This document shows positions 15,390 to 44,000 of a DNA stretch of 64,000 nucleotides, one piece after another. Position numbers and translations under genes: made by a program. The DNA is from an uncultured Clostridia bacterium. Lineage in GTDB: Bacteria; Bacillota; Clostridia; Christensenellales; UBA3700. The notes under the pieces are model-generated. The model made no database searches and was not told where the DNA came from. It saw nothing but the letters and a program-made list of their open reading frames with translations. The DNA lies in NCBI GenBank assembly GCA_948471525.1, contig CAOKSY010000006.1, forward strand, positions 11,646 through 75,645, written 5' to 3'. Every line of letters begins with the position of its first letter. The stretch's first letter is position 1.

Positions 15390-15413
15390 TTTAAGTCTCC
15401 AATCGATATTATT

Positions 15414-15442
15414 ATTTTATAAAAATAAAGGGCAATAGTCAA
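15414..15442 (-). promoter_or_regulatory. Candidate sigma-A promoter of the ABC exporter operon
   Basis: On the minus strand, TTGACT (15442-15437), a 17-nt spacer and TAAAAT (15419-15414), about 25 nt upstream of the GTG start. Confidence 0.5.
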
Positions 15443-15519
15443 TGCCATTTGAAAGCAATCGGTGATTTTTTACATAAATTGTAAATTAGCGAAATTTCTT
15501 TACATTTTTTTAATAATTT

Positions 15520-16052
15520 GGATTAGATCTCTCCGCTTCGGTCGAGATGACATATTTTTGCTAGAGATTACAGAATTACTAAATTATAAAACGTGAGGCG
15601 GAAAGCAAGTATCGCGCGTCTGCCGCGAGTAGAAAACGGCATACTGCTCGAAGAGGAAGTCTAAATATTTATAAGGATGAGATCTCTCCACTGCGGTCGA
15701 GATGACTGATTAATATGTAAGTAACATAAATATAAAAAATTGTGAGGCGGGAAGGCAGCTGAGCGAAAAAGAAAATTGTAGATTTGCCGTCAAGGCGATA
15801 TAAGAAAAAATCGCTCGTACTTGCCGTACGAGTCGACTTTTTTATTACGGTGTATCGGCGGAAATTTTTTTAATCCCAGATAAAACCTCGTGAGGCGGAA
15901 AGCGAGTATCGCGCGTCTGCCGCGAGTAGAAAACGGCATACTGCGCGAAGAGGGAGCGCAGTCGTACTTGCTGTACGACAAGCGACCTCGACAATGCAGT
16001 ATACCGTTTAATGCCGCGCTAGGCGCGTTATATCTCGCTTTCTGCCGAACTA
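15520..16052. repeat. Intergenic modular repeat cluster R2, the most complete copy
   Basis: It holds two 'agatctctcc...cggtcgagatgac' hairpin modules (15520-15552 and 15675-15707), a half unit (15593-15661), the terminator-hairpin module (15792-15847) and a complete 161-nt palindromic unit (15890-16050). That unit differs from 20579-20739 at only about 5 positions. Confidence 0.9.
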
Positions 16053-19917: not shown

Positions 19918-20259
19918 CGTTGCCTCCGTATATTAAAAAATTTGTATCCTGTGAATTGTACCAAAAACCAACACAATCGTATGCCATTGTATCGACCCAG
20001 CGAAAAATATTTAATTTTCTACTATGTGAATCCATATAGCCTCACCGAAAGTATTGTGAGCGCTAACCTGCGCTACAATGTAATGATAGCATAAACAAAA
20101 TATAAAATCAAGCATTTTTCCCTGTTAGACGGCTTGAAGTCGAGATTAGTCTATATTTAATCGGAAGAGATTTTTATAATATAGTATATGCGACTGTAAA
20201 GATTATATAGCCGCGCTGACCGGTGCATGAGTAGTAGAACGTGTCTAAACAGATTAAAA

Positions 20260-20740
20260 GGGTTAGATCTCTCGACTACGGTCGAGAGAACGACTTTGTA
20301 TAACGGCGCGCCTTTCGCTTGATCGAAAGATATCCGTCGCTCACCGTGTACAGCAAGTACACTTGTGGCTAGGGTACTTCCGCTAAAACGAAATCCACAC
20401 CGCTCTCCAAAGTCTGCACACATATATAAAGAAAAAATCGCCCTCAGTGAGGCGGAAAGCGAGATGAATAAAAAATGAATAGGTAGATTTTTCGTCGAGT
20501 GAGCGTTTTATGAGCACCGTCGTACGTCCGTACGTCGATGCGAGTAGAATGTTTAATTTTAATCCCAGATAAAACTTCGTGAGGCGGTAAGCGAGTATCG
20601 CGCGTCTGCCGCGAGTAGAAAACGGCATACTGCACGAAGAGGGAGAGCAGTCGTACTTGCCGTACGACAAGCGACCTCGACAATGCAGTATACCGTTTAA
20701 TGCCGCGCTAGGCGCGTTATATCTCGCTTTCCGCCGAACA
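20260..20740. repeat. Intergenic modular repeat cluster R3
   Basis: A hairpin module sits at 20260-20294. The module gtgaggcggaaagcgagatgaataaaaaatgaataggtagatttttcgt at 20445-20505 also occurs at 30318-30368. A complete 161-nt palindromic unit lies at 20579-20739. Confidence 0.9.
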
Positions 20741-20786
20741 AAAACAATGCGAAGCACTTCTGCCCCGCACTGTTTTTTGGGAATGT

Positions 20787-20823
20787 TGCGGTCGGAAGAG
20801 GGATTAGTTCCCGACCGCATTTT
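20787..20823. terminator. 9-bp stem-loop 25 nt downstream of the 1259-aa lipoprotein gene
   Basis: TGCGGTCGG-n15-CCGACCGCA. The T-run lies on the plus-strand side, so orientation relative to the minus-strand gene is atypical. Confidence 0.4.
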
Positions 20824-20843
20824 GACTTATAAGCTTTGTTTGA

Positions 20844-23800
20844 TCACTCAACCGTCTTGTTGTTGATAATCTTTGCGGCCGAGAAATCGTAACCGCCGTA
20901 AGAGAATTCAAACGTGAGAGTGATTTTCTTACCTATCATATCGGCAGAAATTTTGCCGTCTACAAGATCAAACGCATCGCCGATTGCGCTGGAGCTTATC
21001 GCGATATTTGCCTTTACCGTCACTTCGATATCCGCAAGTTTTTCGCCATCGAACGTATCGCTGAGATAGTATTTGCCGTTTTTCCAGACAAGTCTCATAT
21101 CGTGCTTCTCGCCGTTTGTGTCCACTACTTCGAATTTTACAAGATCGTTAAAACGAGTCTCGGAAGCGATTTTACCGTTGTACTTTACATAAGTAAAGTT
21201 AAGCGTTTTCGCCAACGTGATAGCTTTGGTATTTTTGATCGTATTACCGCCGTCAACGATCGTATATTCGATCTCGAAATTAACTGACGGAGACGCATTG
21301 TTGTTTACAGCGCCGGCGCTTACCTTCAGCCATTTGTCGTAGGATATCACGCCGTTTTCCAAGATATCGGTCTTGGTCGAATCGTTTTTATCGTAAACTG
21401 TAACTTTTGCCTCGCGTTTTACGGTAGGATTATTCAAATCGTCGACCATATAGTACTTGCCGTCTTCAAACTTAAGCGTGAGAGTTCTCACCGGAGCAAA
21501 ATCGCCGTCGTCTTCCGCCCAATAGTATACATTGTATGCGCCGTCGATCTGAGAGCCGAGCTTGTCGATGCTAAACGATGAACTCCATACTTCTTCTCCG
21601 TTATTATACTTTCTGAACGAAATGCCGTATTTCTTAGTTTCCGACTTTGTGCCGTCCGCATATACGAGATTGAAGTGCAGGTATACGGAGCTGATCTTTG
21701 CTATATCCTTCTTGAAATTCATCTGAATATCGTCGACGGAATCAATGAGATTGATAAGTTCCTGTCCTTCCGTAGCGAGATTGATCTCACTCAAGGTCTT
21801 GCCCTTTATCTTCAATTCATAATCGCTCGCGTCCAGTATAGCTGACGTATTCAAACTTCCCTTTCTTGCCACTACTTCTATACTCAAATTTTCGGTCGCT
21901 CCGTAGGCAGCTACCTTTACCGAACCGTCGCTGTTGACTATGAGCGAAGGCATTTCGGGATTAACCGCTCTGAAAGTATATCTCTTATTGAACTCAGGCG
22001 CTTTATCATAATAGAATTCGATATAATACTCGTTTCCGTCGTTGACAAGGTACTTTCCGTCGACAAGGTTTGTATCGACAGACGCACCTACGGTCTGAAC
22101 CGTTCCGTCAGTTAGGGTAAGAGTAATCTGTGCGCCCATATATTCTTTGCTCAAATCGAGTTTTGCAGTAGAATCGTATTCGTAAGGGGTCAATTCAAAC
22201 GTCTCGGGAACCTCTTTATCGACTGCGAATTCCGCAGAATCGACTTCCGCAATCGTGAGTTTCAACTCAATCGCGTCCGCTCTTATCGGCAACGCTATAT
22301 GCGCAGGCAGGAATCCTCCTACGAGCGGAGCCTTATAGATATTTTTCAATACGTTGAACAAACCGTCGCTGAGCAATCCGCCCTGTCCGTCCATCGGCAA
22401 TACGTATCCGATAACTGTCTGCTCTTGATTGAGCAAAGTGGTATCGAGTCCGTTGATCGCTACAAGCTGGGTCACAGCCGTGTAAGTCTTTCCGTCCATA
22501 GCGGTATAAGTATACTCAATGTTCTTACCTATAATCTTATCGAGATCGTTGGCAAGTATATGGATGCCGTCCTCAGCGGTGAAATCAACTATATTTTGTT
22601 TTGTATTGAATACTTTGCCGGTAGCCTTGGGATCTGCATTTTCCAAAGCAAGCGGCTTGCTGTTGTTGAACGTACGCGCAACGTTTGCGTCGGTGGGCAG
22701 ATTGAGGATAGCTTCTTTACAGTTGAAATCGCTTGCTACGCCGAATTCTACGGTAGGAGCGTTAAATCTCAAAGTGTTAAACTGAGCGTCCGTATCTGCA
22801 GCGTCGTCGGGACTGAGAAGTCCTTTTATTATTCCGTCGCGGATATTTGCAGTATTGATCTTTATAAGATTTTCCAGATTTACATCGATCAAAGCATCGA
22901 GATTGAATACTTGATTGAGGAAATCGTAAGTCTGCTCTACGTCGAGCGCAAGACCGTTTTCATCTATAGTTATGCATTTGGTTATCAATGATACCAACGG
23001 ATCGAGCATAGTATTTACGTCGAATTGGAATTCTTCCTCGGAATCCGTCGGATCGTCGGGATCTTCGGACGAATCGGCATTCAGAAGGATTTCAAGATCC
23101 AAAGACGTGAATATGCTGTAAGTCTTTACCTCGGAGATCTGCTTCATAAGCATGCTTGCGAGGCTGACGACTTGCGTGACCGTAGTCTCGAAAGATTTAT
23201 CGGAAAACAGTCTGCTCAAGTTTGCCGCCACATATATTTTGGAAGTGCCGAAGTTCTGCGGATCGAACGCTACGTCAAGTATAGAAGTATCCGCCTGTCC
23301 GCCTACTCTCGTCGGGCACATAACGTCGGTACATACGACGCCGTCGGCGCCCGGAGTATGCTCGTGATATACGGAGAAATAGAGTTTCATCTGCTTGACC
23401 GCTTCATCGTTCATCCAACCCTTAGGATTTGTAGTGATAGCCGTGATAAGAGCAAACGGATCGATATCGGCTACGAGTTTATAAGAGAGATGTTCGTAAG
23501 TCTTACCGGTACGGTCGATAAGCTCAAAAGTTCCGTTGACTTCTACGTTGGCGAGATTGATATCTATAGCGCCGTCGATAGCTTCCTGAGAAAGTTTTCC
23601 GCTGACTGAATCATAGAAACCGTCTGCGATCTCGAACGCCTTCAAAGAAGCCGAACCGCCTTCTACTTCTACGCCCGCAGTTGCGCTTCCGCTCTGCGTG
23701 AGATCTATAGTAAAGTCAAAAGAAATCTCATTTTCAGCAAAGAATTTGCCGAAAATTTCAAGATTCTCTTCGCTGATCATATTGCCGATCAGTCCTCTGC

Positions 23801-24623
23801 CGAATTCGCTGTCGAGAACGCTCCAGATATGATTGAGACTGAGCGTAACGCTGTACACACCACCGTCGCTTCTTTGAATATCGTTTTCGCGGAAAAGCAC
23901 GCCCGGCAAAATAGTCTTGACTATCGCCAAGATCTTTTCGTCTGCGTTTATTTCCGGCAGCTTATCGCTTACGGACGACAGTATACTTGCAAGATTGCTG
24001 TTGTTGATAGCAAAAAGCTGCTCGCCTACCGCAAGATACATTGCTCCGTCTTGATAATAAAGTCCAAAAGACTGCTCGCCTACTCCGATTACCGCGTGGA
24101 ACAACGTAGCATTGTTGACCGCGTCGCTGAAATCGATATTGCCGGTCACGTCAACGCCCAACTTGGTTGTCTTACCGCCGGTCTTCACGTTTCCTTCGGC
24201 ATTGAGGCTGAGTCTTACCTTATCTTTGCCCGCAAGTGAAAAAGTATCTATCACTTCATCCAAAAGATCTCCCCAAAGCTGCGACATCGTGGGAGCCGGA
24301 GCTTCTTCGATACGGAGTATTACCTTGGTAGATACCGCCTTATAATTTTCAGTCTCGGGAGCGGATATAGTAATCTCGTATTCGCCGATCTCGGTATATC
24401 CTTTTGCAGGACTGTATGTCAACTCGGCTTCCGTATGGTTGAGCGAAGCCTTAACGTCGTGTTGTTGTCCGTCATAGATGAAAGTCTGTTCGGGAACTGC
24501 GCTTATAAAGCCTGCTTTCTTTTCTGTCTCCACGTCGTCTTTACAGCCGACCAAGAAAACACCGACAGACATTACTACGACAAGCAGTAGCGCAAACAAC
24601 ACTGTGAGTCTGTTTCGTTTCAT
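20844..24623 (-). CDS. Large lipoprotein of unknown function (1259 aa), N-terminal YDG-type domain, paralogue of 24828-27854
   Basis: Signal peptide plus lipobox (VFLVGC). TFIYDGQQH...ENYKAVSTKVILRI matches the YDG-type repeats of the giant proteins. It shares the motif ILDVAFDPQNFGTSKIYVAANLSRLF with the 1008-aa protein. The RBS is aaggagg. Confidence 0.85.
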   Translation of the reverse strand: MKRNRLTVLFALLLVVVMSVGVFLVGCKDDVETEKKAGFISAVPEQTFIYDGQQHDVKASLNHTEAELTYSPAKGYTEIGEYEITISAPETENYKAVSTKVILRIEEAPAPTMSQLWGDLLDEVIDTFSLAGKDKVRLSLNAEGNVKTGGKTTKLGVDVTGNIDFSDAVNNATLFHAVIGVGEQSFGLYYQDGAMYLAVGEQLFAINNSNLASILSSVSDKLPEINADEKILAIVKTILPGVLFRENDIQRSDGGVYSVTLSLNHIWSVLDSEFGRGLIGNMISEENLEIFGKFFAENEISFDFTIDLTQSGSATAGVEVEGGSASLKAFEIADGFYDSVSGKLSQEAIDGAIDINLANVEVNGTFELIDRTGKTYEHLSYKLVADIDPFALITAITTNPKGWMNDEAVKQMKLYFSVYHEHTPGADGVVCTDVMCPTRVGGQADTSILDVAFDPQNFGTSKIYVAANLSRLFSDKSFETTVTQVVSLASMLMKQISEVKTYSIFTSLDLEILLNADSSEDPDDPTDSEEEFQFDVNTMLDPLVSLITKCITIDENGLALDVEQTYDFLNQVFNLDALIDVNLENLIKINTANIRDGIIKGLLSPDDAADTDAQFNTLRFNAPTVEFGVASDFNCKEAILNLPTDANVARTFNNSKPLALENADPKATGKVFNTKQNIVDFTAEDGIHILANDLDKIIGKNIEYTYTAMDGKTYTAVTQLVAINGLDTTLLNQEQTVIGYVLPMDGQGGLLSDGLFNVLKNIYKAPLVGGFLPAHIALPIRADAIELKLTIAEVDSAEFAVDKEVPETFELTPYEYDSTAKLDLSKEYMGAQITLTLTDGTVQTVGASVDTNLVDGKYLVNDGNEYYIEFYYDKAPEFNKRYTFRAVNPEMPSLIVNSDGSVKVAAYGATENLSIEVVARKGSLNTSAILDASDYELKIKGKTLSEINLATEGQELINLIDSVDDIQMNFKKDIAKISSVYLHFNLVYADGTKSETKKYGISFRKYNNGEEVWSSSFSIDKLGSQIDGAYNVYYWAEDDGDFAPVRTLTLKFEDGKYYMVDDLNNPTVKREAKVTVYDKNDSTKTDILENGVISYDKWLKVSAGAVNNNASPSVNFEIEYTIVDGGNTIKNTKAITLAKTLNFTYVKYNGKIASETRFNDLVKFEVVDTNGEKHDMRLVWKNGKYYLSDTFDGEKLADIEVTVKANIAISSSAIGDAFDLVDGKISADMIGKKITLTFEFSYGGYDFSAAKIINNKTVE

Positions 24624-24827
24624 AATTTACCTCCTTGAATTAAATTCAATTATTCTTCAGTATCATTGTGGAGCGGCATACTGAATTCTAACTGAATTAT
24701 CGAAAAATTTTAGGAAGTTTTAATGATTTTTGACGCAAAATAATTTGACGTACCGATAAGGTCAAAATAATTAAAATGTATTGATATATAAAAATAAATA
24801 TTTATTTAAAATATTACGGCGATCAAC

Positions 24828-27800
24828 CTAATTGACCGCCGCTACGTCGACTTTGATCCGTATTACCGAAGATGCAGATCCCAAATTGACCGCTATCTCA
24901 TAAAAACCGCTTTGCTTAAACATGAGTTTGAACGAGACGGAAATATTTTTGTATATAGTAGCGGGAAGGACTATGTTATACGGAAACTCTATAGCCTGCC
25001 TGTCTATACGTGCGTCCGACAAAACGTAATGTCCGTCGGGATCGTCAATAATGCTGTACGATAAACCTCCGAAAGAATTCACACGTCCTACCCTTATCCT
25101 TACGCTGAGACCGAACGTCCCGCCTTCGTCTCCGTGATAGGTGTTGAAAATCTCCGCCGCGAAAGAATAATTATAGTCCTTAAAATAATATTCTCTCGAG
25201 GGAGTAGCGTCGACTATATCGTACTTGCTCTTATCTACCTGCGGTTCTTTTGGCGAGATATAGAGCGCCACGTCTGCCGACAAACCGTCGAATTGATACG
25301 TCAGCGAATATTTTCCCGTGCGTTTGAAATATATTCCCTCGTTTATTCGAGTAGGATCTGTATAAAAAATATCGTTGGGAGTATAAATATCAAACCCGTT
25401 GATCTTCATATATTTGAGCGGAAGCGTCGCTCTAGTCACCGTGCCGTCGGTGAGCGTCCACACTATTTCCGCCACGCGCAGTTTGGAATAGTACAGTTCC
25501 TCTTTGAACTCTAGCGTAAGCTCGTCCGTACTAGTCGCCAGTCGAACGTCGCTCGCAGGAGTTATCGCGAGTTTATATCCTTTGTAATGACCGTACAAAT
25601 AGAAGTTGAGCACCGTATCGGAAGAAGACTTGATAAACCGTCTGGAAGAGGAACTTTCGCTTTCTTTAAAAATCACGTCAGACGCATTGGTCGCATAAAC
25701 GTATCTCGTCTTGATCTTTCCGTTATCAAAATGTATATCCGCGCTGATCCTATCGGGAATATCTCCCGTAGACAGTCTCTCGCCTTGCATATAAGAAGTC
25801 TTTTGAGGGCGTGAAAATTCCACGCTGTCCACATCGTCAAGTTTTATATATGTTTCTACGCATACGCAAAGCCATTTTCTCCACTCGTAATTACCTATCT
25901 CTTCCCATATTAATTTCCACAGTTCTTTGCCTACAGGCAGACAATAAAGTTTGACCTTCTGCCAATCGTTGCTTGCCAAATCTATTTCGCTGTGATCTAC
26001 TATGCGCAACTTACAATCGGAAGTCTCTCCGTAGATATTCTCTCCTTGTGCATTTATATAAGATCCGGACAAATCGTCGATCTCCTGCCGCGACATAGGC
26101 ACAAAGGAATCGAAGAGCACACCGTCTTCATAAATATCGTTATATATCGGCGCAGTCTCGCCAACTCCGTCCACTGTATCAGTATCAAGTTTATAAGAGA
26201 TATTAGGAGCGGATAGCAATGTCGCCGTATATTGTTTTGTACCCGCGACGTCGTTGCCGTAGAGATGAACGGCGCTGCGCTTTACGTCGTAATCGGACAC
26301 GTTCCATCTTAGATATTCTTGCTCTACGGAAACCGTATCTATATAATACGCATCGCCTTTGAACAACGTCATAAACGTTTTTATGCTTTCGCCGTCAAAC
26401 CCCGCAAGAGCCAATATTCTCTCTATAGACGCGGAGATAGAACCGTCGGAATAGATGAGAGACATAAGTATCTCCTCCGCAAGCGTGCTTCCCGATTCCT
26501 GTCCGTAGGTTGCGACGGCGTCGACATTCTGTCTCGACAGCGTGTCGGACGATATGACTGCGAGGAAGTATTCTGGGATGAAATTAGATACGATAGATTC
26601 CGCGCTCGTAAACGAAGATACAAATCTTTTGCTCAAAAAAGCCCTCGCGCCCACGCTCACGTAGACGTCGTAAGTGCCGAAGTCGTCGGGAGAAAAAGCC
26701 ACGTCCAGTACGGCGCCCTTTGCTCTGTCGTATTTGTCGGAACAAAATGCGGCGCACTTATCAGAACATCGATGCGACATTCTGAAATGAAAGAAGTTGT
26801 CGCTCTCGAGGCTTTTGAGATCGCCGCCTCCTGCAAAAAGATCGAGTATATCTATCTTTGCTCTGAATTCATAATCGTATTCCATCTCCGTCCGCTCCGC
26901 AGAGGAATTTTCCAATTTGACTTTTCCCACAGTAGTTACGTCGGTAAGTCTGCCCGCTTCGTAAAGGGACTCGTCGGGTATATATTTAGAGAGATCCTTG
27001 CGTCCGTTAGAAATGGTGTATTCCGGAACAATTACGCCCAACTCCTTTTCAGTATCGTCGCGATCGTTTCTATAATAAAGACTTTGACAATCTACAGAAC
27101 TTATCTTACCGCCTTCCAGAGCGATACATATCTCGCCCTTTAAAGAGGGAGTGCGATCGAGCATATCAGAATAATTTTCCACTTTTGCCAATGAGAAAAA
27201 TACCTTTTGCAGCACTTCGGGAAGAGAGAGAAACATATCCTTTGATACAGCGTTGTCAAGACCTTTTTTCAAATCGAAATCAAAATAATACTTAGTGCCG
27301 TCGGCATTGACGTTGCCGTCGGTAAAAAATATTCCGCCAAGCGCAACGAAAAGCGCTCCCGGCGTGGAATAATCCACTCCGCCGCCCATAGCTTTTGCCG
27401 CCGTAGTCAATGTATATATAAGAGGCGCGTGATCGAATACGTTGCGTTGATATTCGCCCGCGTCGTCCTGCCACAGACTCCAATATAGAGTGTCGTCGCA
27501 AGAATATACGTCAAGCAATATCTTACTTTCCCCGTCGCGGACACGTTCTATTCTAAGCGCTCCCTGCTGTCCTGAGCGCGAATTCAAATCGAGATTTAAT
27601 TCAAGAGCGCATTCATATCCATCTCCCGTATTTTTATCCTCGGCTTGAGCGCGAATAGAAAAAACAACGGGTTTCTCTGTAGATATATTCATATACTGCC
27701 TGTCGAGCGCAGCCGCGATATCGACCAAAAAATCTTGCCAAGGAGTGATGGGAAGATTTTCGTCGTTTCTTTTCGAGCCGTCGCAAGCCGTCGCGCATAC

Positions 27801-27854
27801 AAATAACGAGATCAACAGCAATATCGATAATATCACAAAAACTCTGCGACGCAT
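24828..27854 (-). CDS. Large lipoprotein of unknown function (1008 aa), co-transcribed with the two-component system
   Basis: Signal peptide plus lipobox (VCATAC). VLDVAFSPDDFGTYDVYVSVGARAFLSKRF is homologous to the 1259-aa protein. The ATG lies 1 nt after the histidine kinase TAG stop. Confidence 0.85.
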   Translation of the reverse strand: MRRRVFVILSILLLISLFVCATACDGSKRNDENLPITPWQDFLVDIAAALDRQYMNISTEKPVVFSIRAQAEDKNTGDGYECALELNLDLNSRSGQQGALRIERVRDGESKILLDVYSCDDTLYWSLWQDDAGEYQRNVFDHAPLIYTLTTAAKAMGGGVDYSTPGALFVALGGIFFTDGNVNADGTKYYFDFDLKKGLDNAVSKDMFLSLPEVLQKVFFSLAKVENYSDMLDRTPSLKGEICIALEGGKISSVDCQSLYYRNDRDDTEKELGVIVPEYTISNGRKDLSKYIPDESLYEAGRLTDVTTVGKVKLENSSAERTEMEYDYEFRAKIDILDLFAGGGDLKSLESDNFFHFRMSHRCSDKCAAFCSDKYDRAKGAVLDVAFSPDDFGTYDVYVSVGARAFLSKRFVSSFTSAESIVSNFIPEYFLAVISSDTLSRQNVDAVATYGQESGSTLAEEILMSLIYSDGSISASIERILALAGFDGESIKTFMTLFKGDAYYIDTVSVEQEYLRWNVSDYDVKRSAVHLYGNDVAGTKQYTATLLSAPNISYKLDTDTVDGVGETAPIYNDIYEDGVLFDSFVPMSRQEIDDLSGSYINAQGENIYGETSDCKLRIVDHSEIDLASNDWQKVKLYCLPVGKELWKLIWEEIGNYEWRKWLCVCVETYIKLDDVDSVEFSRPQKTSYMQGERLSTGDIPDRISADIHFDNGKIKTRYVYATNASDVIFKESESSSSRRFIKSSSDTVLNFYLYGHYKGYKLAITPASDVRLATSTDELTLEFKEELYYSKLRVAEIVWTLTDGTVTRATLPLKYMKINGFDIYTPNDIFYTDPTRINEGIYFKRTGKYSLTYQFDGLSADVALYISPKEPQVDKSKYDIVDATPSREYYFKDYNYSFAAEIFNTYHGDEGGTFGLSVRIRVGRVNSFGGLSYSIIDDPDGHYVLSDARIDRQAIEFPYNIVLPATIYKNISVSFKLMFKQSGFYEIAVNLGSASSVIRIKVDVAAVN

Positions 27855-27855
27855 T

Positions 27856-29091
27856 CTAACCCCGCTCAGGCAGCGTAGCGGTTATGACTATACCGCTGGG
27901 CACGTTGTGCATAGCGTATATCCTGCCGCCGACTTCCTCGACTATATTTTTGGCAATAGCAAGTCCCAGACCGGTTCCCTGCGTACTCTTTGCGTTTTCA
28001 CCCCTGAAAAATCTATCGAATATCTTTTCCTCGTCGCCGTCGGCAATACCTATGCCTGTATCGGCAACGCTGAGTATACATCCGCCGTCGCCGCGCTTGA
28101 GAGTAACCTTTATCCTATCCCCCTCTCGAGTATACTTGACGGAGTTTTCCAATAGAATGATGACAAGCTGCTTTAGTTTTTCCGCGTCTATGTTCGCGGG
28201 CGCGGATTGAATATTTGCGATAAGCGTACGGTTGGACTCGCCTATTATCTCGCTGTATATCTCGAGTACTCCGGATACGGTTTCTCCCGCGTCGGACACC
28301 TTGTCCGTCTTTGCAGACGGCGTAGAAACGCTGCGCATAAGATCCTGAGACAGAGAAGTTATGTGCTCTACTTCGCTTATAGTATTCTCAAGCAGATCGC
28401 TAACTTGCAAGACCGTGCTGTCGGGCGAAGCCAAAATATTTTCCATATTGCCGCGTATCACGGTCAACGGAGTGCGTATCTCGTGAGTCATCTCGTGAAT
28501 AAACTGCTTTTGCTGATTTATCGCGCGCACCACGGGACGTCCCATCAAAAAGGCAAATGCGGTATATATACCCATTACCGTTACGAACGCGACAGGGAAA
28601 AACCATACGAACGGCGTAACTTTATCGTATTCTTCAAGCAAGTCCGCCTGCATCAAAAGTTTGATATATACGCCGTCTCCATAGACGAACGTGTAAGTCT
28701 TATAAGAGTAATCGCCGATCTTTTCCGATACGACTTTATTGAAATAAGAGGGCAAGCCTGTAATATTTTTTTCGAGATAATCATTGGACGTATAGGCTCC
28801 CAAAGTGCTGTTGTCGTCGCGCCTCTTGTACATTACGATATCTATATTTTCTCTATACAGAAAATGATCGCCGTCGTTTTCTTCTAGCAGCGTCTCTATC
28901 GACGACAGTTGACTTTCGCCCAATCTGTCGGCATATTCGCGCATTATTCTGTCAGCCGTCTTATCTCCGACAGCCAAAGCCTGACATACCAATCCCGCTC
29001 CGAGAATTATAAGTATCGCAAGCGTGACGAATCCTGCAATCCAAGCTCTGCTCTGCCAACTCTTTGTAGTAATGATATGACTGCTGTTCAT
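27856..29091 (-). CDS. Sensor histidine kinase (two TM segments, ~130-aa extracytoplasmic loop)
   Basis: The H-box is HEIRTPLTVIRGN, the N-box is LLENSVKYT and the G-box is GTGLGLAIAKNIVE. It overlaps the response regulator gene by 4 nt. Confidence 0.93.
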   Translation of the reverse strand: MNSSHIITTKSWQSRAWIAGFVTLAILIILGAGLVCQALAVGDKTADRIMREYADRLGESQLSSIETLLEENDGDHFLYRENIDIVMYKRRDDNSTLGAYTSNDYLEKNITGLPSYFNKVVSEKIGDYSYKTYTFVYGDGVYIKLLMQADLLEEYDKVTPFVWFFPVAFVTVMGIYTAFAFLMGRPVVRAINQQKQFIHEMTHEIRTPLTVIRGNMENILASPDSTVLQVSDLLENTISEVEHITSLSQDLMRSVSTPSAKTDKVSDAGETVSGVLEIYSEIIGESNRTLIANIQSAPANIDAEKLKQLVIILLENSVKYTREGDRIKVTLKRGDGGCILSVADTGIGIADGDEEKIFDRFFRGENAKSTQGTGLGLAIAKNIVEEVGGRIYAMHNVPSGIVITATLPERG

Positions 29092-29789
29092 TGTCTATCC
29101 TCTCCGCCGTCCGATCTGTATCCGCTTTCCGTCCATCGATAGCCCACCGTCTTCAACGTCTGCAGACAGTCCTGCATACCTATCGACGAAAGCAACTTCC
29201 TCAATCTGTATACGTAGACCTCAATAACGTTCTGAATAGTGTCGCTGTAAAATCCGCATACACTGTCAAAAAGCTGTTGCTTAGTGACCGTGATCTCTTT
29301 ATTTTTAATCAAGGTCTCCAGCACCTCGTACATTTTTCCGTTGATCGGCAATTCCTTATCTCTGTACGTAACGCTCTTGCTCTTATAATCGACGTTTAAA
29401 TCGCCGAGCTTGTACCTCAACGCACGGAAATCCCTGTGATATCTGCGCATAGTCGCCTGAACCCTAGCAAGCAATTCCTCTCTGGAAAATGGCTTGACCA
29501 TATAGTCGTCCGCTCCGAGATTGAGGAATTCTACTTTACGTTCGAGCTGACCTATAGCGGATAGAATTATTATAGGCGTAAGCTTCTGTTTGCGCACGCT
29601 TCTCAATACTTCTTCCCCGTTCATTTTCGGCAACATAATATCGAGTATGACGATGTCGTATTCTTCAGTAAGAATTTTATTCAATCCGCTCTCTCCGTCA
29701 TAAGCCGCATCGGTATCGGCAATTCCCGCCAACATAAGTCTCAACGCGTCCGACAACGGCTTGTCGTCTTCGATAACAAGCGCTCTCAT
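29088..29789 (-). CDS. OmpR-family response regulator
   Basis: The receiver domain has DIVILDIMLPKMNG and the pattern K..PIIILSA. The winged-helix C-terminus has IEVYVYRLRKLL. The RBS is aaggagaggg. Confidence 0.93.
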   Translation of the reverse strand: MRALVIEDDKPLSDALRLMLAGIADTDAAYDGESGLNKILTEEYDIVILDIMLPKMNGEEVLRSVRKQKLTPIIILSAIGQLERKVEFLNLGADDYMVKPFSREELLARVQATMRRYHRDFRALRYKLGDLNVDYKSKSVTYRDKELPINGKMYEVLETLIKNKEITVTKQQLFDSVCGFYSDTIQNVIEVYVYRLRKLLSSIGMQDCLQTLKTVGYRWTESGYRSDGGEDRQ

Positions 29790-30090
29790 AGTATCCCTCT
29801 CCTTGTATGTATATACGTATGCGTAATTTATATATTTATTCGCAGTGCCCGAAAAGCACTGCCTTTTTAGTCAATAAACCTATAGTTTTACTGACTTTGC
29901 AGCATTTTCTAAAAAACGCGCTTTCGTCGGTTATTTCTACACAATAAGTATACCCTAAAGCCCTGTCTAATTCAATATCTTTGGGTCAAATAATGTATAC
30001 TTTTCTTAGAATAAATCGTTATTTGTCGACAGTATATTGCAAATCGAGCCTTATTATCGCGCGGCAACTAAATCTCTCGATCATTTATTT

Positions 30091-30482
30091 GGATGAGATT
30101 TCTCGACTATGCTCGTAAGGAGCGAAGCGACGGCATAGCGAGCAAGCAGGTGCGTCTCGTGCGAGCGTCAATGACAAGTCATAAAGTCGTCATATTGAGC
30201 GTAACGTAGTGCAGTCGAAATATCTAATCAATTTGATTAATAGGATTAGATCTCTCCGCTACGGTCGAGATGACAGCTTTTTTGCTAGAAATTACAGAAT
30301 TATTAAATTATAAAAACGTGAGGTGGGAAGCGAGATGAATAAATAAGGAATAGGTAGATTTTTCGTTGAGACGCTATAAGAAAAAAATCGCTCGTACTTG
30401 ACGTACGAGTCGACTTTTTTATTACAGTGTATCGGCGGAGATGCCTATTTACTTTTATTCAGCCTCGCTTTCCGCCGAAATC
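30091..30482. repeat. Intergenic modular repeat cluster R4
   Basis: Hairpin modules sit at 30091-30120 and 30243-30275. A 63-nt module at about 30113-30175 is the reverse complement of 47116-47178. The terminator-hairpin module is at 30371-30426. The right arm ends in ctcgctttccgccgaaa, 3 nt before the ypeB stop. Confidence 0.9.
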
Positions 30483-38016: not shown

Positions 38017-41000
38017 TTACGCCGATTGCTTTCCGCCTTTCTTTTTCTTGACTACGATCACTGCAACGACCGCAGCTGCCGCAAGGATAACGACCGGTAT
38101 GATTATTCCGAGTACCAAACCTACGTTGGATCCCGACTTAACTTCTACCTCGAATACCTTGCTGATACCGTCGTAGTTCTGGTTGCCGTCTACGGTCACC
38201 ACCACGTAATACTTGCCCTTGGGCGCGTCGGCGAGGTTTTCGGTATATTCCTGCGTGAGCGCCGCGTCGGTGTAATACTTGACGGTAGCGTTGCCGTACT
38301 TGGACGATACGGAAGCAAAGTCAGCCAATGCAGGCAAACCTCCGTCCAAATCGGGCAATACTATTTCGCCGATAAAGCTGTTGGCAGCCTTTGTGATATT
38401 GAACGAAACGGAAGTATTGGACGCCGTCGGACTGAGCGTATAGTTGGGGTTCTTGACCGTAAACGCTCTTGCGGTATAGCTTCCGACGTTGATAGCAACG
38501 CCCTCGTCTATTATTACATCAAATTCTACTACGTCTCCGTTGATTGCGCCTACGCCGCTTGCTATAGGAGCCTGCGACTGCGGCGTATTGTTGAGTTCTT
38601 TATACTCAAGCGTCGTGTTGGACCATACGATAGCTGTGATCACCTTGGGACTGATCGCAAATTCGCAAGTTGCGCCTTCCTCGGGAAGTCTGTAATTCTT
38701 GTTGAGTAATTCTACTACCGTAGCGATATGCGTACCTGCATTTGCATTTGCTCCGCCTACTACTACTTCGCATACGTCGGAACCGAAGAGCGATGCCTGA
38801 TCGACGTGAGCCGTCGGGCACTGCGGATTGCCGTTATAGGCAAACGACGCTACATCCCATACGATATTGACTTCCGCAGGAAGAATAGTGAATTCCTGAG
38901 TGGAGACAGCCTTATAGTTGCTGTTGGTAAGCGAAGTGATGCTTGCAGTATGCGTGCCCGCGCTGAACTGCGGAGCGCTTACGGTAACGTCGCACTCGTC
39001 GCCGAAGAGCAATCCGCCTACCGTCGCTGTAAGTCCGTGCGCCTCGCCGTCGTATACGAACGTCGTCTGCGAAGACCAAGTGATCTCTACTTCTCTGGGA
39101 AGAATCTCGTAGGTTACCGTTCTGCTCTCTTCGGATACTTTATAGTTGGGGTTGTTGGAAAGCACTACTATAGTTACTTCGTACTTACCCACGTCCTTCT
39201 GCGAATGGTTGATATATGTGGGCGCTTCGATCCTGTCGTTGCCTACCAAGCCTTCGAATCCCGCTACTTTAAGCAACTGATAGTCGCCGTTGTAGACTAC
39301 GCTTGCCGTACCCCAATCCGCTGTTATCGTCTTGGGTACTATATGGTACGGAGTAGGATCCTGAGCGGAAGAATCGTCGAGCGCAATTTCGATATAGGAG
39401 TTTTCGTATTCCAATACGAGAGCGTATCTGCCTGCGTCTACGGCGTTTTCTCTTATCGAGAATTTGACGATATCCTTTAGGTCTACCGCGAGAGTTCCGC
39501 TCTTGACGGAAATATTCATTCTTTCATAGATCTCATCGGACGTGAGCGCTGTCTGTCCGTATTCTACTTCGACGGGATCCGCGCTGTAGACTACTCTGGC
39601 CTTGTTGACTACAAGCGTAAATCTGCCGTATTTGGTATTGTGGTTGGCGATAGTTATCTCATAATATATGATTGCTCCTTCCGCGCCGGTAACGCCTTCT
39701 ATACCGGGAAGAGTATCGGTGTATTCGCCGTCTGCTCTATCGGAGTATTTGACTGTAGCCGTATTCCACTTGGATCCCATATCTCCGGCGAGAGTTATTC
39801 TCTCTTCTACGTTTTCCGCAATGTAAGACTTGAGATCGACCGTCTGAACGGATCCGTCGTAAGTAACGGTATTGCGCTGTACGTTGACGGTGATGTCTGC
39901 CGGTACAACGTGGAGATATGCCTCGCTGAACTCGATGTCGTAGTCCAAATTGGTCCACTCAGCCGCAATCCTGTAATCTTTTACCGGAACGTATCCGGAA
40001 GTCGGCAAGCCCTGCAGAGAAAGCGTTATGCCGGGATTGGAAAGGTCTACGCCTTCCGCTTGCCAAGCCGCGTTGGACTTATCCCATACTGGCTCACCTA
40101 CAAATCCGTACGTCACCTGCTGAGTATTGAAGATAGTCACGTTTACCTTGAGCGGAACGATCTTATAGTCGATACTGATATTGGATTCAAGCTGATAGTT
40201 CGCCGTAGTTTCGCCGCTCTGCAATACTGCCTCCGCGGTATATTTTTCTATGCCTGCGCTGAGATTAGTGTGCACGTGTTCGATACCCAATGCGCCGAGT
40301 TTTATCCAATCCTCTACCTGTTGCGAACCGTCCCATTTCGTGCCCTGTATGTAAGCGTTGATCGTAAGCGGTCTTCCGGTATAGGTAAATTCGTATCCGT
40401 CGCCGATTGCCTGACCGGTGATATGATCTCCGTCAAACCACTGAACGCTGATCTTCTGCGGAGTGATGACAAACGCGCTTGCGTTACATCTTGCTCCGTC
40501 TACGACCGCATACTCTACTATGTAGTTGCGACGTTCGTCCTCTTCGTTGCCGTCGAGTTTTGCAAACTTGTGATATACGCGGTAATTGCCTACGCTGTTG
40601 GCAAAGTTATTTGCCTCTGTGGGATCGCCGCCGTCGGCGCCCTGCTCTCCGCCTGCTACTACGTAGAAGATGAAAGAGTCTCCGATATTGGCTATGGTCA
40701 CGGGCTTGCCGCCTGCGGTGACCGTATACGTCACGCCCGTGCCGCGTTTGATATGATCGGATATATCTTTCTCGGTCCTGTCGCCGATAGGTCTGCCGTA
40801 TTCCTTGGTCGCCTTGCCCGGCATATTTATTGTTACGTTTACGGCTCTAATCTCAAACGTGAGGTTTGTTCTGATCCTTGCCTTGTGGTTGGGAGCATTT
40901 ACTCTTACCGCAAACTCGTACAAGCCTGCGTTTCTAAACTTAAAGTCTGCTCCGCTCACCCATCCGGTTTCGTCTTCGATATCGGAACTTACGTTGATGA

Positions 41001-44000
41001 GTTTGTACTCTACCGTTCTGTTATCGAAAGCATACTTTTGCTCCGCTTCGCCGCCTCTGAACTGATAAACGAGCGCCGATCCGTCCGCCAAAGGCGAATG
41101 TTGATTTCCGTCGAAGTATACGGACGGGAAAGTTATAGACGAGATCGTAAACTCTGCGGGAGTTACTGTCAGCGTTCCTTCTTCCGCGTTGCCGCTCTCG
41201 TTGACGAAAGTCACGTTGTAGTTTGAATTCAATACCGTGCCTACGATAGCGTAAGTGTCGGCTTCGATATAGTTGAAACCGCTCTGCGGAAGTCCTTCCG
41301 CGCTGAGACTAAACACCTTGGACGCGCTGTCGGCTCTGTAAAGTCCGTCGCCGCCGATAGTATATGACGCCGTCGAATTGAGGTAGGAGACTATATTGTT
41401 TGCTCCCGTGCCGGTAACCGCCTGTCTTCTTGCGTCTGCAGAACCGTACTCAAGCGTTCTGTCCTTGATAGTTACGGTAATCTGTCTCTGAGATATAACG
41501 AAATCGCATTGCAGATCGCTCTCCTGAACGGTGTACGGATCTCCTCCGTCTATGCTGTATATTACGTCTCCGACGTTGGCTACTCTATAGTTTTGATGCG
41601 TTACTCCTGTGAGTACTGCTCTGTATTTGCCCACGTCGTGTATGTGATTACCCAACTTGCCGCCGTTCTCGAGAATATCGTATCTTATAGTTGCTCTAAT
41701 GTCGTCGTCGCCTATGATATTGCTTACAGTATAGTTTGTATGGCTCTCGCTTTGATCGCCGTGATTGCCGTAAACTTCGTCAAGACCGTGCCATTGTATC
41801 CATACGGGTCTCGAAATTACTTCGTAAACGTCGATATTGGACGTTTTGCCCGAACCTATAACGTCGCCGACAAAACGGAAGTGGAGATCGTCGTTGCCGC
41901 TAGGCACGCCTGCCTTGAGTTGCATAAATACCGAATAGAAAGCTACTCTTTCGTTGGTATCGAGCGCGCCGGTTGTGCTGCCGTCTCCTACGAACAGCGT
42001 TATATAGTCTTTCTGAAGTTTTTCCCAAGCAGCCTGATCGTCAAGTTCGTCATTGCCGGTATCGTTCATCATTCCGTTTACGGAAACAAGGTTTTCGCCG
42101 AGTTTTTCAAACAGTTCGTCGGAAGTGAGAACTCTGTCGCCGTAATTTACTTGAATAGCGCTGCCGAGTTTTATGTCTACCCAGTTGGTAAGATAATTGA
42201 TATTTACCTTTGTCTCAAAAGGCTCGTAGTTGCTGTTTGCCAAACTTACCCAGACGTACCATCTGCCGGCATTTGGAGCGTGAACTTCCGTCTGCGACAT
42301 ATCCAAGTCCGTCGGTCTGGTATCAGTCTCCTCGTCCTTATTGATGATGACCGACATCTGAACGTTGATGTCATCGGCTTTGGTGCCGCCTACGAATTTG
42401 AGGATACTCTTCAGATCGTTGGCGATATTTATGCCGTCGGGTTCGTTTTTCTCGGGATCGGCGTCAAAGTTGAATTCTCTGCGCGTAAGTCCGAGTTCTG
42501 TAGACTTCTCGATCATAAACGTAGCTACGTTGCCGTGATCGGAAGAAAGTATATACTCGTATTTGCCGCCCCCCAAAGGTTTAGCTCTGTATACCGTGAT
42601 ATCGTAATTGCGGACTATCTCTCCGTCAGCCGATACCCCGTCTTTAAAGCCGAGTACGATAGGATAACCGCCCTCTCTGTAATTCTGATACACACCGTCC
42701 TTGCCGGTCTGCGCTGTGGAAGTGAGCGTCCAGTTCATATAATGGTCGAGGATAAACTTATTGTCGGCGTTGTCGGTATGGTACTTCCAGTTTGCACCCG
42801 CCGCGCCGGCAGCAACAAGCTGTCCCATAGCAACGGTGCTTGCAAGACCATATTCTTTGCTTATATCGAATACGTCTATTATGACCTCTCTCTTCTTGAT
42901 ATGGAATACGTCGGACGCATTGAAGAGTCTGTAATTTTCTACATTGTCGGGATTTATCAACGACGTCTCTGCCGTCGGATAACCGCCCTCTTTATAGACA
43001 TAGCCGCCCATATCCTGCTCTGCAAGCACGATAGTATCGTCGTAAACTACGTTCTCTACCCAATCGTCGCCGACCTTGACGTCGGAAGTATCGACAAACT
43101 GACCGTCGACTATCTTGACGTATTTTCTTACGTGAGGATAGATCTTGGGAAGCGTGCCGTCATAGAGCCACGTCTTTCCGTCTTCAAGCCATCCGTCGCT
43201 TGTCTGCTGTCTCCAATCTACGTACACCGTCTTGGGAGATACGCTATAAGCTTCGACGTTGGAATCATTTGTATAATCGATATTATAGTTGTAGAGATAT
43301 TCTCCGCTCATCGCTTTGTGATTGAGAGAATATGCGCCTACTCCAAGTTGATTTGCGTCGGTAACTTCGTTGCCGGAATGAGAAAGGAAAAATGCGATAC
43401 GTCCGTCGATAGAGAACTTGTATCCGTCCTTGTCTATACTCGTGCTGTACGTGATACCGAACTTTTCTTCCATCTCGCCCGCCGTCGGAAGTTTGTCTCC
43501 GTAGGTTGCGCCGTACTTATTTACGTTGATAGTAACGTCTAGTTTGTTGATGATAGCCTGGAAGTTGCCTGCTTTCTCTACGTGGTTGGGAGCGGAAATT
43601 TTATAGTAGACCGTTCTGTTTTCGTTGGCGTTATTATAATCGCGCCAGGTTCTTAGAACCTCGGTATAATTTCCGTTGAGAGTAGACGAGTACGTGATAG
43701 TGATGTCGTCTCTGTTTTTAGCCTCGTAGCCGCGCATTTCTATGACGCCCTGCACGTTGGGAAGCGCAAATCCCTGCTCTTCGCCGTTAAACGTAAGCTG
43801 CACGTCTTCTCTAGTCGAACGGATAGTAGCGGGATTTACCGTAAACGTTCCGTCGGTAGCGGTAATGCTATAGCTGTTGACCACGTAATCCAATACTCTT
43901 GAACTGTCAACCTTTGCCGGCTTCACTTTCAGCGCGCCGGTATAGGTGCCGACTACGTAGTAATGATCGTCGGGATCTGCGGACGCTCCGCCCGTTGTGG

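Follow-up and report, generated by a model that had tools for sequence, protein, structure and literature searches.

A conserved unit of a two-component system and two paralogous giant lipoproteins in an uncultured gut Clostridia bacterium

In the MtrA-MtrB-LpqB system, the lipoprotein LpqB interacts with the kinase and damps its activity (PMC5845573, citing Hoskisson & Hutchings 2006 and Nguyen et al. 2010). In C. difficile, the lipoprotein WalA is encoded in the wal operon and has been proposed as a modulator of WalK (PMC9210968), while SaeP of S. aureus is an auxiliary lipoprotein from the two-component system (TCS) operon saePQRS (PMC5083920). Here we describe an uncultured gut Clostridia bacterium that carries a conserved four-gene unit, consisting of an OmpR/PhoB-family response regulator (RR), a sensor histidine kinase (HK) and two paralogous lipoproteins, LP_A and LP_B (Table 1), which by analogy may be akin to 'three-component' systems such as MtrAB-LpqB.

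As in MtrA-MtrB-LpqB, an OmpR-type RR, a kinase and a lipoprotein share an operon, with the lipoprotein gene directly after the kinase gene. However, there is no sequence relationship: LP_A had no Pfam, NCBIfam or PDB sequence match, the RR scored 142 bits against the MtrA cut-off of 300, and the HK 92 bits against the MtrB cut-off of 450. LpqB has roughly 580 aa, LP_A being about twice its size, and MtrAB-LpqB, whose hosts are Actinobacteria and not Clostridia, has no counterpart to a second paralogous lipoprotein under a putative dedicated RR-box promoter. With WalR-WalK the locus shares the arrangement of a Firmicutes OmpR-type TCS and co-transcribed extracytoplasmic accessory proteins, such as YycH and YycI of Bacillus, a structurally related pair that controls the kinase. 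The differences are again clear, since the RR scored 128 bits against the YycF cut-off of 340 and the HK 126 bits against the WalK cut-off of 725, the kinase has neither HAMP nor PAS and differs in its loop, YycH and YycI are far smaller than LP_A and LP_B and anchored by TM segments, and one paralog here, LP_B, is probably a regulated target and not an operon member. The SaePQRS operon is similar in including an auxiliary lipoprotein gene, but SaeP, a small protein, acts together with the membrane protein SaeQ, and that system shows no sequence similarity to ours and lacks both a giant ectodomain and a pair of paralogs.

Table 1. Features of the locus; positions refer to the window, i.e. the whole 64-kb stretch of DNA analysed.
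Feature	Position	Strand	Basis or remark
RR gene, OmpR/PhoB-family response regulator (233 aa)	29088..29789	-	Pfam
HK gene, sensor histidine kinase (411 aa)	27856..29091	-	Pfam, sequence-read topology
LP_A (LP1008), 1008-aa predicted lipoprotein	24828..27854	-	undescribed family
LP_A family core, residues 28-684	25803..27773	-	MAFFT alignment of both families with P0029 and P0030
LP_A segment of highest conservation, residues 354-398, FFHFRMSHRCSDKCAAFCSDKYDRAKGAVLDVAFSPDDFGTYDVY	26661..26795	-	alignments A1, A7
LP_B (LP1259), 1259-aa predicted lipoprotein, LP_A paralog	20844..24623	-	lipobox LVGC
LP_B family core, residues 108-793	22245..24302	-	collinear with LP_A core
LP_B YDG/MBG-like N-terminal module, about residues 36-105	24309..24518	-	matches to PF18887 proteins
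RR-gene sigma-70-like promoter, TTGAAT-17-TATACT	29947..29975	-	consensus scan
12-bp hairpin overlapping LP_A stop, candidate rr-hk-lpA terminator	24816..24842	-	consensus scan
Putative RR box of LP_B promoter, AATTCAGT-TAG-AATTCAGT	24680..24698	-	11-bp-period direct repeat
-10-like element TGATACT, 15 nt downstream of box	24659..24665	-	conserved fixed spacing

Organization and synteny of the four genes

The initial annotation had placed four ORFs in the stretch 20844-29789, and we found them as stated, all on the minus strand. Direct reading of the sequence likewise bore out the overlap of the RR and HK genes by 4 nt (ATGA) and the single base between the HK stop codon (TAG) and the LP_A ATG, and the distance between the two lipoprotein genes measured the same 204 nt. 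Both lipoboxes are also real; in LP_A (ATAC), the Cys, C24, was unchanged across sets of 18 and 44 diverse relatives. The RR showed the Pfam domains Response_reg (6e-24) and Trans_reg_C (3e-15), was below the cut-off for all NCBIfam equivalogs, and was 77-86% identical within the close clade. In the HK, Pfam identified HisKA and HATPase_c, while sequence and alignment predicted two TM segments enclosing an extracytoplasmic loop of ~120 aa (about residues 42-159), whose conservation (0.47-0.72) was lower than that of the cytoplasmic part (0.8-0.94).

RR, HK, LP_A and LP_B adjoin one another at each of the 11 species-level loci that make up the close clade, with unrelated flanks, and in six of the seven complete distant loci (23-26% identity), with differing neighbourhoods; distant lineages with all four genes together include L023, L024, L032, L034 and L035. 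The seventh complete distant locus, L031, has RR-HK-LP_A and no LP_B within 6 kb, and in L012 the lipoprotein directly follows the HK. The proposal that the TCS and the lipoproteins belong together thus held when homologues were compared, and the conservation of gene order supports the view that they constitute one functional unit. The opposite reading, that the adjacency is fortuitous or peculiar to one genome, is extremely improbable and already refuted by synteny, as a TCS gene immediately precedes a family member at 18 loci with unrelated neighbourhoods and 23-100% identity.

The distance from the HK stop to the LP_A start was -11 to +3 nt in the 11 close-clade species; of six distant RR-HK-LP_A loci, five had 1-16 nt and one, L031, had 96 nt, and at the sequence level the LP_A gene is translationally coupled to the HK gene. 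LP_B orthologs, on the other hand, are convergent to RR-HK-LP_A in six of the 11 close species. The lipoproteins (39-55% identity) evolve faster than RR and HK (64-86%). In L009, a deletion took most of the RR gene, the entire HK gene and two thirds of LP_A from its N-terminus on, leaving LP_B and its box intact, so that LP_A was lost along with the TCS.

The lipoprotein superfamily

LP_A and LP_B are members of one undescribed superfamily. The initial annotation could name no family for them, and searches of Pfam, NCBIfam, PADLOC, PHROGs and PDB sequences with the lipoproteins gave no match. Their paralogy, which had been proposed from a shared motif, extends well past it: BLASTP of LP_A against LP_B gave E 4e-6 across 68 aa, hhalign of the two ortholog families gave E 6.8e-5 (probability 63.5%, 386 columns), the LP1259-family HMM matched LP_A at 1e-16, and a broad family HMM without LP1259-clade members matched LP_B at 1.7e-83. 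The relative P0029 serves as a bridge, joining an LP_B-type N-terminus to an LP_A-type HxCx3Cx3C core. With core profile A5 and 1.84 billion representatives, the superfamily comprised about 126 clusters at 50% identity, whose members have an alpha/beta core of ~650 aa and, as a tail, Ig-like domains. Only the lipobox Cys is invariant throughout, and many members, distant ones included, carry H-x-C-x3-C-x3-C followed by LD[IV]AF[SD]P.

In LP_A, conservation reached its maximum (0.75) in the segment with this motif, where H356, H361, C363, C367, C371 and D384-A-F-S-P..F-G are invariant, and which might form a metal site. The AF2 model of LP_A (pLDDT 76.7) predicted a core of helices mixed with long beta strands, and that of LP_B residues 100-1259 (pLDDT 70.3) had the same core secondary-structure pattern; the conserved residues of the LP_B core are H420, H422, C431, C436 and LDVAFDPQNFG. 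Compared with LP_A, LP_B has an additional module at its N-terminus, and its Ig-like tail is longer. The YDG-type module said to open LP_B is a tentative assignment: it aligned at 32% identity (E 4e-6) with part of the 2910-aa protein encoded at 38017-46749 (residues 2556-2618) and resembles proteins with PF18887, which we take to be an MBG-type domain model, but matched Pfam MBG_2 with an E value of only 0.079. The add-on modules of the superfamily are of adhesin type, MBG-like or Flg_new (7 of 44 relatives).

The best Foldseek matches were the Gram-positive S-layer proteins SbsC, EA1 and Sap together with integrin and complement chains, at a TM of about 0.1. These matches reflect only chains of Ig-like domains, the likeness lying in the beta-sandwich chains predicted for the C-terminal halves of LP_A and LP_B. 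Unlike SbsC, EA1 and Sap, the two proteins are lipid-anchored, Pfam detected no SLH or other cell-wall-binding domain in them, and Foldseek returned no structural match for the N-terminal core of ~650 aa. Distant members without a neighbouring TCS (L025, L027) show that the family fold is not kinase-dependent.

Transcription units and the repeat box

The promoter predicted before the RR gene is also conserved in L006 and L021, species of convergent layout have TTGACA-17-TATAAT at the equivalent place, and the rr promoter carries no repeat box. In the gap after LP_A, in which the initial annotation had seen no convincing terminator, a hairpin of -19.7 kcal/mol (z -4.8) was predicted, with equal stability in 0 of 200 shuffles. 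Its tail is A/U-rich without a clean U run, and L006, L021 and L023 have cleaner hairpin and T-run terminators at the same place. We regard the hairpin as a candidate terminator of the rr-hk-lpA transcript, possibly a leaky one, since without a clean U tract read-through from lpA to lpB is possible in collinear species.

The repeat AATTCAGT-N3-AATTCAGT is invariant before all 11 LP_B orthologs, in collinear and convergent layouts alike, with its proximal half-site at the -35 position. It had one exact match in the window (0.18 expected even at three mismatches) and occurred exactly once per locus in the about 20 kb searched per genome, so that further copies, and with them a wider regulon, are possible. 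Downstream, AATGATA(G/C/A)T is near-invariant at fixed spacing in the 11 species, and an SD sequence, AAGGAGG (24637..24631), precedes the LP_B ATG at 24623; box, -10-like element and SD keep fixed spacing within otherwise unalignable DNA. Direct repeats of 10- to 11-bp period over the -35 position typify winged-helix regulators of the OmpR/PhoB type, and, as in PhoB/OmpR-activated promoters, 11-bp-period tandem repeats here replace the -35 hexamer with the -10 at a fixed distance; to our knowledge, the AATTCAGT half-site is neither the pho box nor the WalR consensus. The convergent layout in six of 11 species, the hairpin or terminator after LP_A, the single box and the invariant box, -10 and SD indicate that LP_B is transcribed independently, as a separate unit that is probably controlled by the RR. 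The single operon initially proposed for both lipoproteins therefore stands for rr-hk-lpA but not for LP_B, which has its own predicted promoter.

The repeat might instead be the operator of a regulator encoded elsewhere, the adjacent TCS controlling different genes. Such an arrangement would agree with a box-free rr promoter, which bears no autoregulation signature, but we think it unlikely given the OmpR/PhoB-type layout of the repeat and the fact that the box-bearing gene always adjoins the RR, inversion included. Moreover, the half-site tracks the recognition helix of the adjacent RR. Before LP_B, distant clades have the 11-bp-period repeats TTAAGGTA-N3-TTAAGGTA and TTTAATTT-N3-TTTAATTT and the 10-bp-period repeat GATTAAGG-N2-GATTAAAG, and the RR helices differ accordingly (DT[IVL]Q.VIEVY[VI]Y, TTG..VI[ED]INIF and DTVQTVIEINIF), being constant inside each clade. 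We infer that the adjacent RR is the box-binding protein, and that at this position it would activate and not repress.

Possible roles of the two lipoproteins

The best explanation of these data is a self-contained surface-signalling module of two transcription units, a model to which we give about even chances. The first, rr-hk-lpA, would be expressed constitutively from an ordinary sigma-70-type promoter, with LP_A translated in step with the kinase and lipid-anchored on the outside of the membrane, its core followed by the Ig-like tail. There LP_A could join the 120-aa loop of the kinase in sensing or could modulate the kinase, much as LpqB does for MtrB and as proposed for WalA with WalK; this step is less well supported than the constitutive expression of the operon and the induction of LP_B, which have sequence evidence behind them. 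In the second unit, lpB alone, the phosphorylated RR would bind the box at the -35 position and switch on LP_B, the paralog with the additional adhesin-type module. In favour of this model we count the conservation of the module with its HK-to-LP_A coupling, the separate transcription of LP_B, the change of box half-site and RR helix in step between clades, the natural deletion in L009, and the precedents of LpqB and WalA. Against it count the TCS-less members, the possible read-through into lpB, and the fact that translational coupling also occurs between genes with non-interacting products.

Ig-like tails and MBG-like or Flg_new modules are typical of adhesins and S-layer-like proteins, which would fit LP_A as cargo and not as a sensor. 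Both lipoproteins might then be mere TCS-controlled envelope proteins, LP_A riding the transcript with no part in signalling, and the S-layer, integrin and complement matches, the rapid divergence expected of exposed surface proteins and the members lacking a TCS are consistent with this possible, if doubtful, account. It does not explain why the HK/LP_A junction is kept to a few nucleotides in nearly all lineages while LP_B is free to switch strand, why LP_A lies behind a constitutive-looking promoter and not the box, or why L009 lost LP_A together with the TCS while LP_B survived; the TM of about 0.1 and the lack of SLH or other wall-binding domains in Pfam searches also speak against it.

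The TCS could also monitor envelope quality, sensing the assembly or load of LP_A and LP_B with no external ligand, like NlpE-Cpx and RcsF-Rcs, so that LP_B induction would be homeostatic and the paralogs would form a hetero-oligomer. Lipoprotein-based envelope monitoring is reportedly established for Cpx, the single box per locus suggests a self-contained module, and the pair is retained in all TCS-bearing lineages but L031. This we consider quite unlikely, as L031 has LP_A with no LP_B within 6 kb and the monitors known so far belong to the outer membrane of Gram-negative bacteria.

The initial annotation had offered an accessory sensing partner or a regulated envelope structure. Under the two-unit model these are probably not alternatives, the evidence being consistent with LP_A as sensing partner and LP_B as regulated output. 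A further point for that model is that the HK loop (18-29% identity) and the LP_A core (about 23%) diverge at similar rates, against 45-55% for the cytoplasmic part of the HK.

The four genes and the lipoprotein family

The four consecutive ORFs described by the initial annotation were all found on the minus strand, and direct reading of the sequence bore out the two junctions that it had claimed, namely an ATGA at which the response regulator (RR) and histidine kinase (HK) genes overlap, and a single base between the HK TAG stop codon and the ATG of the first lipoprotein, LP_A (LP1008, 1008 aa). In the window, a gap of 204 nt separates LP_A from the second lipoprotein, LP_B (LP1259, 1259 aa). 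The flanking genes, which include sleB, ypeB, PRPP synthetase, an MBL-fold hydrolase and rho, show that the host is a spore-forming member of the Clostridia.

Features of the RR-HK-lipoprotein module in the window
Feature	Position	Strand	Remarks
Sigma-70-like promoter of rr-hk-lpA	29975..29947	minus	TTGAAT-17-TATACT
RR	29789..29088	minus	233 aa
HK	29091..27856	minus	411 aa
LP_A (LP1008)	27854..24828	minus	
Hairpin after LP_A	24842..24816	minus	−19.7 kcal/mol, z −4.8
Box	24698..24680	minus	direct repeat, putative RR site
−10-like element	24665..24659	minus	TGATACT
SD	24637..24631	minus	
LP_B (LP1259)	24623..20844	minus	

RR belongs to the OmpR/PhoB family, with an N-terminal receiver (Response_reg, PF00072, 6e-24) and a C-terminal winged helix (Trans_reg_C, PF00486, 3e-15), both above the Pfam gathering score, and HK is a class I kinase carrying HisKA (PF00512, 4e-9) and HATPase_c (PF02518, 1e-25), with an H-box, HEIRTPL, that does not change across clades. 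Two hydrophobic stretches of HK, read by eye at residues ~16–41 and ~160–185, enclose a loop of ~120 aa, and this architecture is conserved. Neither HAMP nor PAS was found in HK by the Pfam scan; only ~18 residues (185–203) lie between the second hydrophobic segment and the phospho-accepting His, and all distant orthologs retain this short spacing without a detected HAMP. When RR and HK were compared with the NCBIfam equivalogs (WalRK, PhoBR, MtrAB, BaeSR and others), none came near its cut-off, and an identity of the two-component system (TCS) with a known ortholog such as WalRK, PhoPR, MtrAB or BaeSR was rejected on these scores. At one related locus, L006 (8027–9997), RR and HK form a single 656-aa ORF (Response_reg, Trans_reg_C, HisKA and HATPase_c), which is either a genuine fusion or an assembly frame error; its close relative L021 has them in two genes.

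The proposal that neither lipoprotein belongs to a named family held up in profile searches: LP_A and LP_B gave zero matches in Pfam and NCBIfam (E ≤ 0.01), PADLOC and PHROGs, and PDB sequences compared with four family profiles (A1, A2, A5 and A8) returned noise alone (E ≥ 0.039). Literature searches found no description of the family or the module. The claimed homology of the two lipoproteins is faint in one-to-one alignments (BLASTP E 4e-6 across 68 aa; hhalign of the ortholog alignments E 6.8e-5, probability 63.5%), and is firm on three other grounds. P0029, the LP_B of locus L009, bridges the two types, having an LP_B-type N-terminal module and an LP_A-type core (ISHICDDTCGAYCAAKY..., AIPEYTAITADL...); LP_A 28–684 is collinear with LP_B 108–793 in a joint alignment; and the HMMs cross-match, that of the LP_B family retrieving LP_A at 1e-16 and a broad family HMM built without any LP_B-clade sequence retrieving LP_B at 1.7e-83.

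A profile of the core shared by both lipoproteins (A5) matched 126 clusters among 1.84 billion cluster representatives, 109 of them at E ≤ 1e-10, and all 10 representatives looked up were unnamed metagenome proteins. These ~126 clusters, counted at 50% identity, define a superfamily of ~1000-residue lipoproteins, all from uncultured gut Clostridia. Nearly all full-length members have 650–2000 aa and a signal peptide with L-[VAS]-[AG]-C near residue 25. Because signal peptides ending in this motif are common and the lipobox Cys is, together with the initiator Met, the sole invariant column when 44 diverse members are aligned, the superfamily is one of predicted lipoproteins; the lipoboxes of LP1259 (L-V-G-C) and LP1008 (A-T-A-C) both have the sequence of SPase II substrates, predicting lipidation. 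Many members carry H-x-C-x3-C-x3-C ~20 residues N-terminal to LD[IV]AF[SAD]P..FG, and H356, H361, C363, C367 and C371 are invariant in the LP_A-type members (n=18). LP_B-type proteins have H-x-H ... C-x4-C in its place, and some members, such as P0030, lack any Cys; a structural metal site at the His/Cys motif is our guess. Since Pfam matches in the 44 members were limited to N-terminal add-ons (Flg_new in 7/44, PKD in 1/44), the core lies outside Pfam, and the superfamily, present in neither Pfam nor PDB, is a candidate for curation as a domain family and for structural study.

AF2 models of LP_A (pLDDT 76.7) and of LP_B residues 100–1259 (pLDDT 70.3) share a common plan, in which a helix is followed by long antiparallel strands and helices (the ~650-aa core) and then by a chain of beta-sandwiches. 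Foldseek searches of these near-full-length models in PDB and BFVD matched only chains of Ig-like domains, among them the S-layer proteins SbsC, EA1 and Sap, integrins, complement C3/C5 and phage Big-domain proteins, at TM ~0.1, and on the predicted folds these matches are to generic Ig-like chains. The likeness to S-layer proteins is of this kind, and no SLH or CWB match was found by Pfam.

LP_B had been said to open with a YDG-type module of the kind that builds the giant proteins elsewhere in the window. This kinship is weakly supported. The extra N-terminal module (~36–105) is 32% identical (E 4e-6) to one repeat of the 2910-aa neighbour protein and retrieves proteins bearing PF18887, which we take to be an MBG-type domain model; the MBG_2 model itself scored 14 bits (E 0.079) against a Pfam gathering cut-off of 25 bits. 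The giant minus-strand ORFs themselves, at 38017–46749 (2910 aa) and 47500–55674 (2724 aa), had no Pfam match at E ≤ 1e-3. Modules of the YDG/MBG-like type found in LP_B are present at least in the 2910-aa ORF, and the giant ORFs may be built from a divergent, uncurated type of repeat.

Conservation of the gene order

The initial annotation had staked its case in part on homologs lying beside an RR-HK pair in other genomes, and such synteny was found for the LP_A and LP_B clades, as the adjacency holds in the close clade and at distant loci. In the close clade, RR, HK, LP_A and LP_B are adjacent at 11/11 species-level loci amid varying surrounding genes, with identities of 39–55% for the lipoproteins, 64–72% for HK and 77–86% for RR. 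Two layouts occur, one collinear (RR-HK-LP_A-LP_B in the window, L004, L006, L020 and L021; LP_A–LP_B gaps of 151–714 nt) and one convergent, with LP_B facing LP_A-HK-RR (L008, L014, L015, L017, L019 and L022; gaps of 109–473 nt). Without exception in this clade, the LP_A start lies −11 to +3 nt from the HK stop. The order RR-HK-LP_A-LP_B recurs in relatives with 23–26% identity (L023, L024, L032, L034 and L035), the second lipoprotein of the distant loci being a family member by the FAM6 HMM (1e-14 to 1e-73). L031 has RR-HK-LP_A and no LP_B within 6 kb, L012 has a lipoprotein gene directly after HK, and L033 has LP_A-LP_B on a truncated contig. Two more distant members (L025 and L027) have no TCS nearby, and the contig of L026 is too short to judge.

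Locus L009 (8581–13351) holds a decayed module, seen on four contigs, in which RR residues 1–60 run, across a deletion, straight into the final third of an LP_A resembling P0030; LP_B (P0029) is undamaged, as is the direct-repeat promoter before it. This locus is a natural experiment on the dependence of LP_B expression on RR.

Other neighbours were also observed. The TCS-less member at L027 (6001–12643) adjoins a fused ABC_tran+FtsX (MacB-like) gene, and the LP_A/LP_B pair at L024 (12583–14932) is followed by two multi-pass membrane proteins that lack Pfam matches; the family may have partners besides the kinase. In two distant lineages, a pseudouridine synthase gene (PseudoU_synth_2) lies directly 5' of the RR gene (L008, 19159–20025; L023, 3047–3766). 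A pseudouridine synthase gene of another family, truA2, belongs to the wal operon of C. difficile as well (PMC9210968), and the parallel is possibly a coincidence.

Predicted transcription units and the lpB promoter

The four genes had been read as one operon with no convincing terminator in the 204-nt gap. The sequence argues against both points: LP_B is probably a separate unit, having its own predicted direct-repeat promoter in both layouts, and a stable hairpin, a candidate terminator, follows LP_A in the window, with clean hairpin and T-run terminators at the LP_A 3' end in L006, L021 and L023. The rr-hk-lpA unit has its own sigma-70-like promoter, which in the convergent species reads TTGACA-17-TATAAT.

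All LP_B orthologs, whether collinear or convergent, are preceded by the direct repeat AATTCAGTTA(G/A)(A/G)ATTCAG (the box), in which a AATTCAGT half-site occurs twice at an 11-bp period. At a fixed distance downstream come AATGATA(G/C/A)T and then AGGAGG-N6-8-ATG, and the DNA further 5' of the box is not alignable among orthologs. This is the promoter layout of the OmpR/PhoB type (AATTCAGT-N3-AATTCAGT, 15 nt, GATACT), with spacing invariant in 11 species, and the location of the −10-like TGATACT places the proximal half-site at the position expected for a −35 hexamer. The box was found once per locus, further copies having been sought in ~20 kb per genome. The 64-kb window likewise has a single copy, against an expectation of 0.18 even at three mismatches. 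RR autoregulation was rejected, the RR gene having no upstream box.

Outside the close clade, the repeat 5' of LP_B takes other forms, TTAAGGTA-N3-TTAAGGTA in L023 and TTTAATTT-N3-TTTAATTT in L024 and L032–L035, both with an 11-bp period, and GATTAAGG-N2-GATTAAAG with a 10-bp period in L009. The RR recognition helix reads DT[IVL]Q.VIEVY[VI]Y, TTG..VI[ED]INIF or DTVQTVIEINIF according to clade and does not vary inside a clade. Box and helix thus vary together, a pattern that regulator–site co-evolution would produce.

Proposed mechanism and comparison with known systems

The best-supported reading has three parts: rr-hk-lpA would be expressed constitutively, with its products in fixed proportion; RR would activate lpB at its pho-box-like promoter; and LP_A would act with the predicted extracytoplasmic loop of HK as a co-sensor or modulator. 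The predicted constitutive unit and the existence of a separate lpB promoter rest on direct sequence evidence from many genomes. From the promoter layout and the joint variation of box and helix, we infer that the adjacent RR is the protein that would bind the box, and that it would be an activator. A role of LP_A with the kinase loop is suggested by the hk-lpA junction, tight in nearly every lineage, by the loss of LP_A along with the TCS in L009, and by the similar rates at which the HK loop (18–29% identity) and the LP_A core (~23%) diverge, the cytoplasmic part of HK retaining 45–55%. Precedents for a lipoprotein partner, LpqB-MtrB (PMC5845573), WalA-WalK (PMC9210968) and SaeP (PMC5083920), point the same way. 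The adhesin-like architecture of LP_A and the existence of family members without a TCS speak for the main alternative, in which LP_A would be simply co-transcribed cargo.

A more far-reaching possibility, which we consider rather doubtful, is that the giant lipoproteins are true extracellular receptors of a dedicated kinase, forming a new class of lipoprotein-receptor signalling with paralogs as sensor and output. The 650-aa core of LP_A, with a His/Cys metal site and borne on an Ig-like stalk, would then bind a ligand from the host, the diet or a cell surface at a long distance from the membrane, and the signal would pass through the HAMP-less kinase to induce the paralogous, adhesin-tipped lipoprotein. 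If true, this would be a new signalling class conserved across many uncultured gut lineages.

Turning back to the three-part reading, the module may work like the actinobacterial MtrAB-LpqB 'three-component system', whose RR-HK-lipoprotein gene order in one operon is matched here in layout alone. Homology places the module outside that system, for RR and HK and for the lipoprotein alike. RR and HK are not orthologs of MtrA (142 bits, NCBIfam cut-off 300) and MtrB (92 bits, cut-off 450), and LP1008 and LP1259, with no Pfam or NCBIfam match at E ≤ 0.01, are not homologs of LpqB. Orthology with WalRK likewise fails (YycF 128 bits, cut-off 340; WalK 126 bits, cut-off 725; NCBIfam), and the Pfam models of YycH and YycI had no match in LP_A or LP_B. 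What are new here are the lipoprotein superfamily itself, a partner of at least 1000 aa, and the use of a paralog of that partner as what seems to be the only local target, its operator being conserved exactly.

Kinases that depend on an accessory lipoprotein are represented by few model systems (MtrAB-LpqB, SaePQRS and WalA) and, to our knowledge, signal delivery by such lipoproteins is poorly understood. The module offers a clean natural case, with one kinase, one tightly coupled lipoprotein and one apparent target gene, which has an exactly conserved operator and encodes a paralog of the coupled lipoprotein. Christensenellales-like gut bacteria are widely interesting and almost uncharacterised molecularly. 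For work on their sensing of the gut environment, an inducible switch of a surface protein would be a helpful entry point.

Lastly, modular dispersed repeats are common to the intergenic regions 20150–20843, 29990–30482 and 15400–16049. Segments 20447–20499 and 30318–30370 are 91% identical, and ~170 nt at ~20560–20740 are nearly identical to the region after rho. A search of 15–33 kb in Rfam gave no match. The 145-aa ORF predicted by gene callers at 20820..20383 lies wholly within these repeats and is probably spurious. The flanking direct repeats were ruled out as a sign of a mobile island, because the same modules recur after rho at 15.4–16.0 kb, which makes them dispersed intergenic elements; their hairpin motif TTAGATCTCTCnnCTACGGTCGAGA occurs at 15523, 15678, 20263 and 30246.
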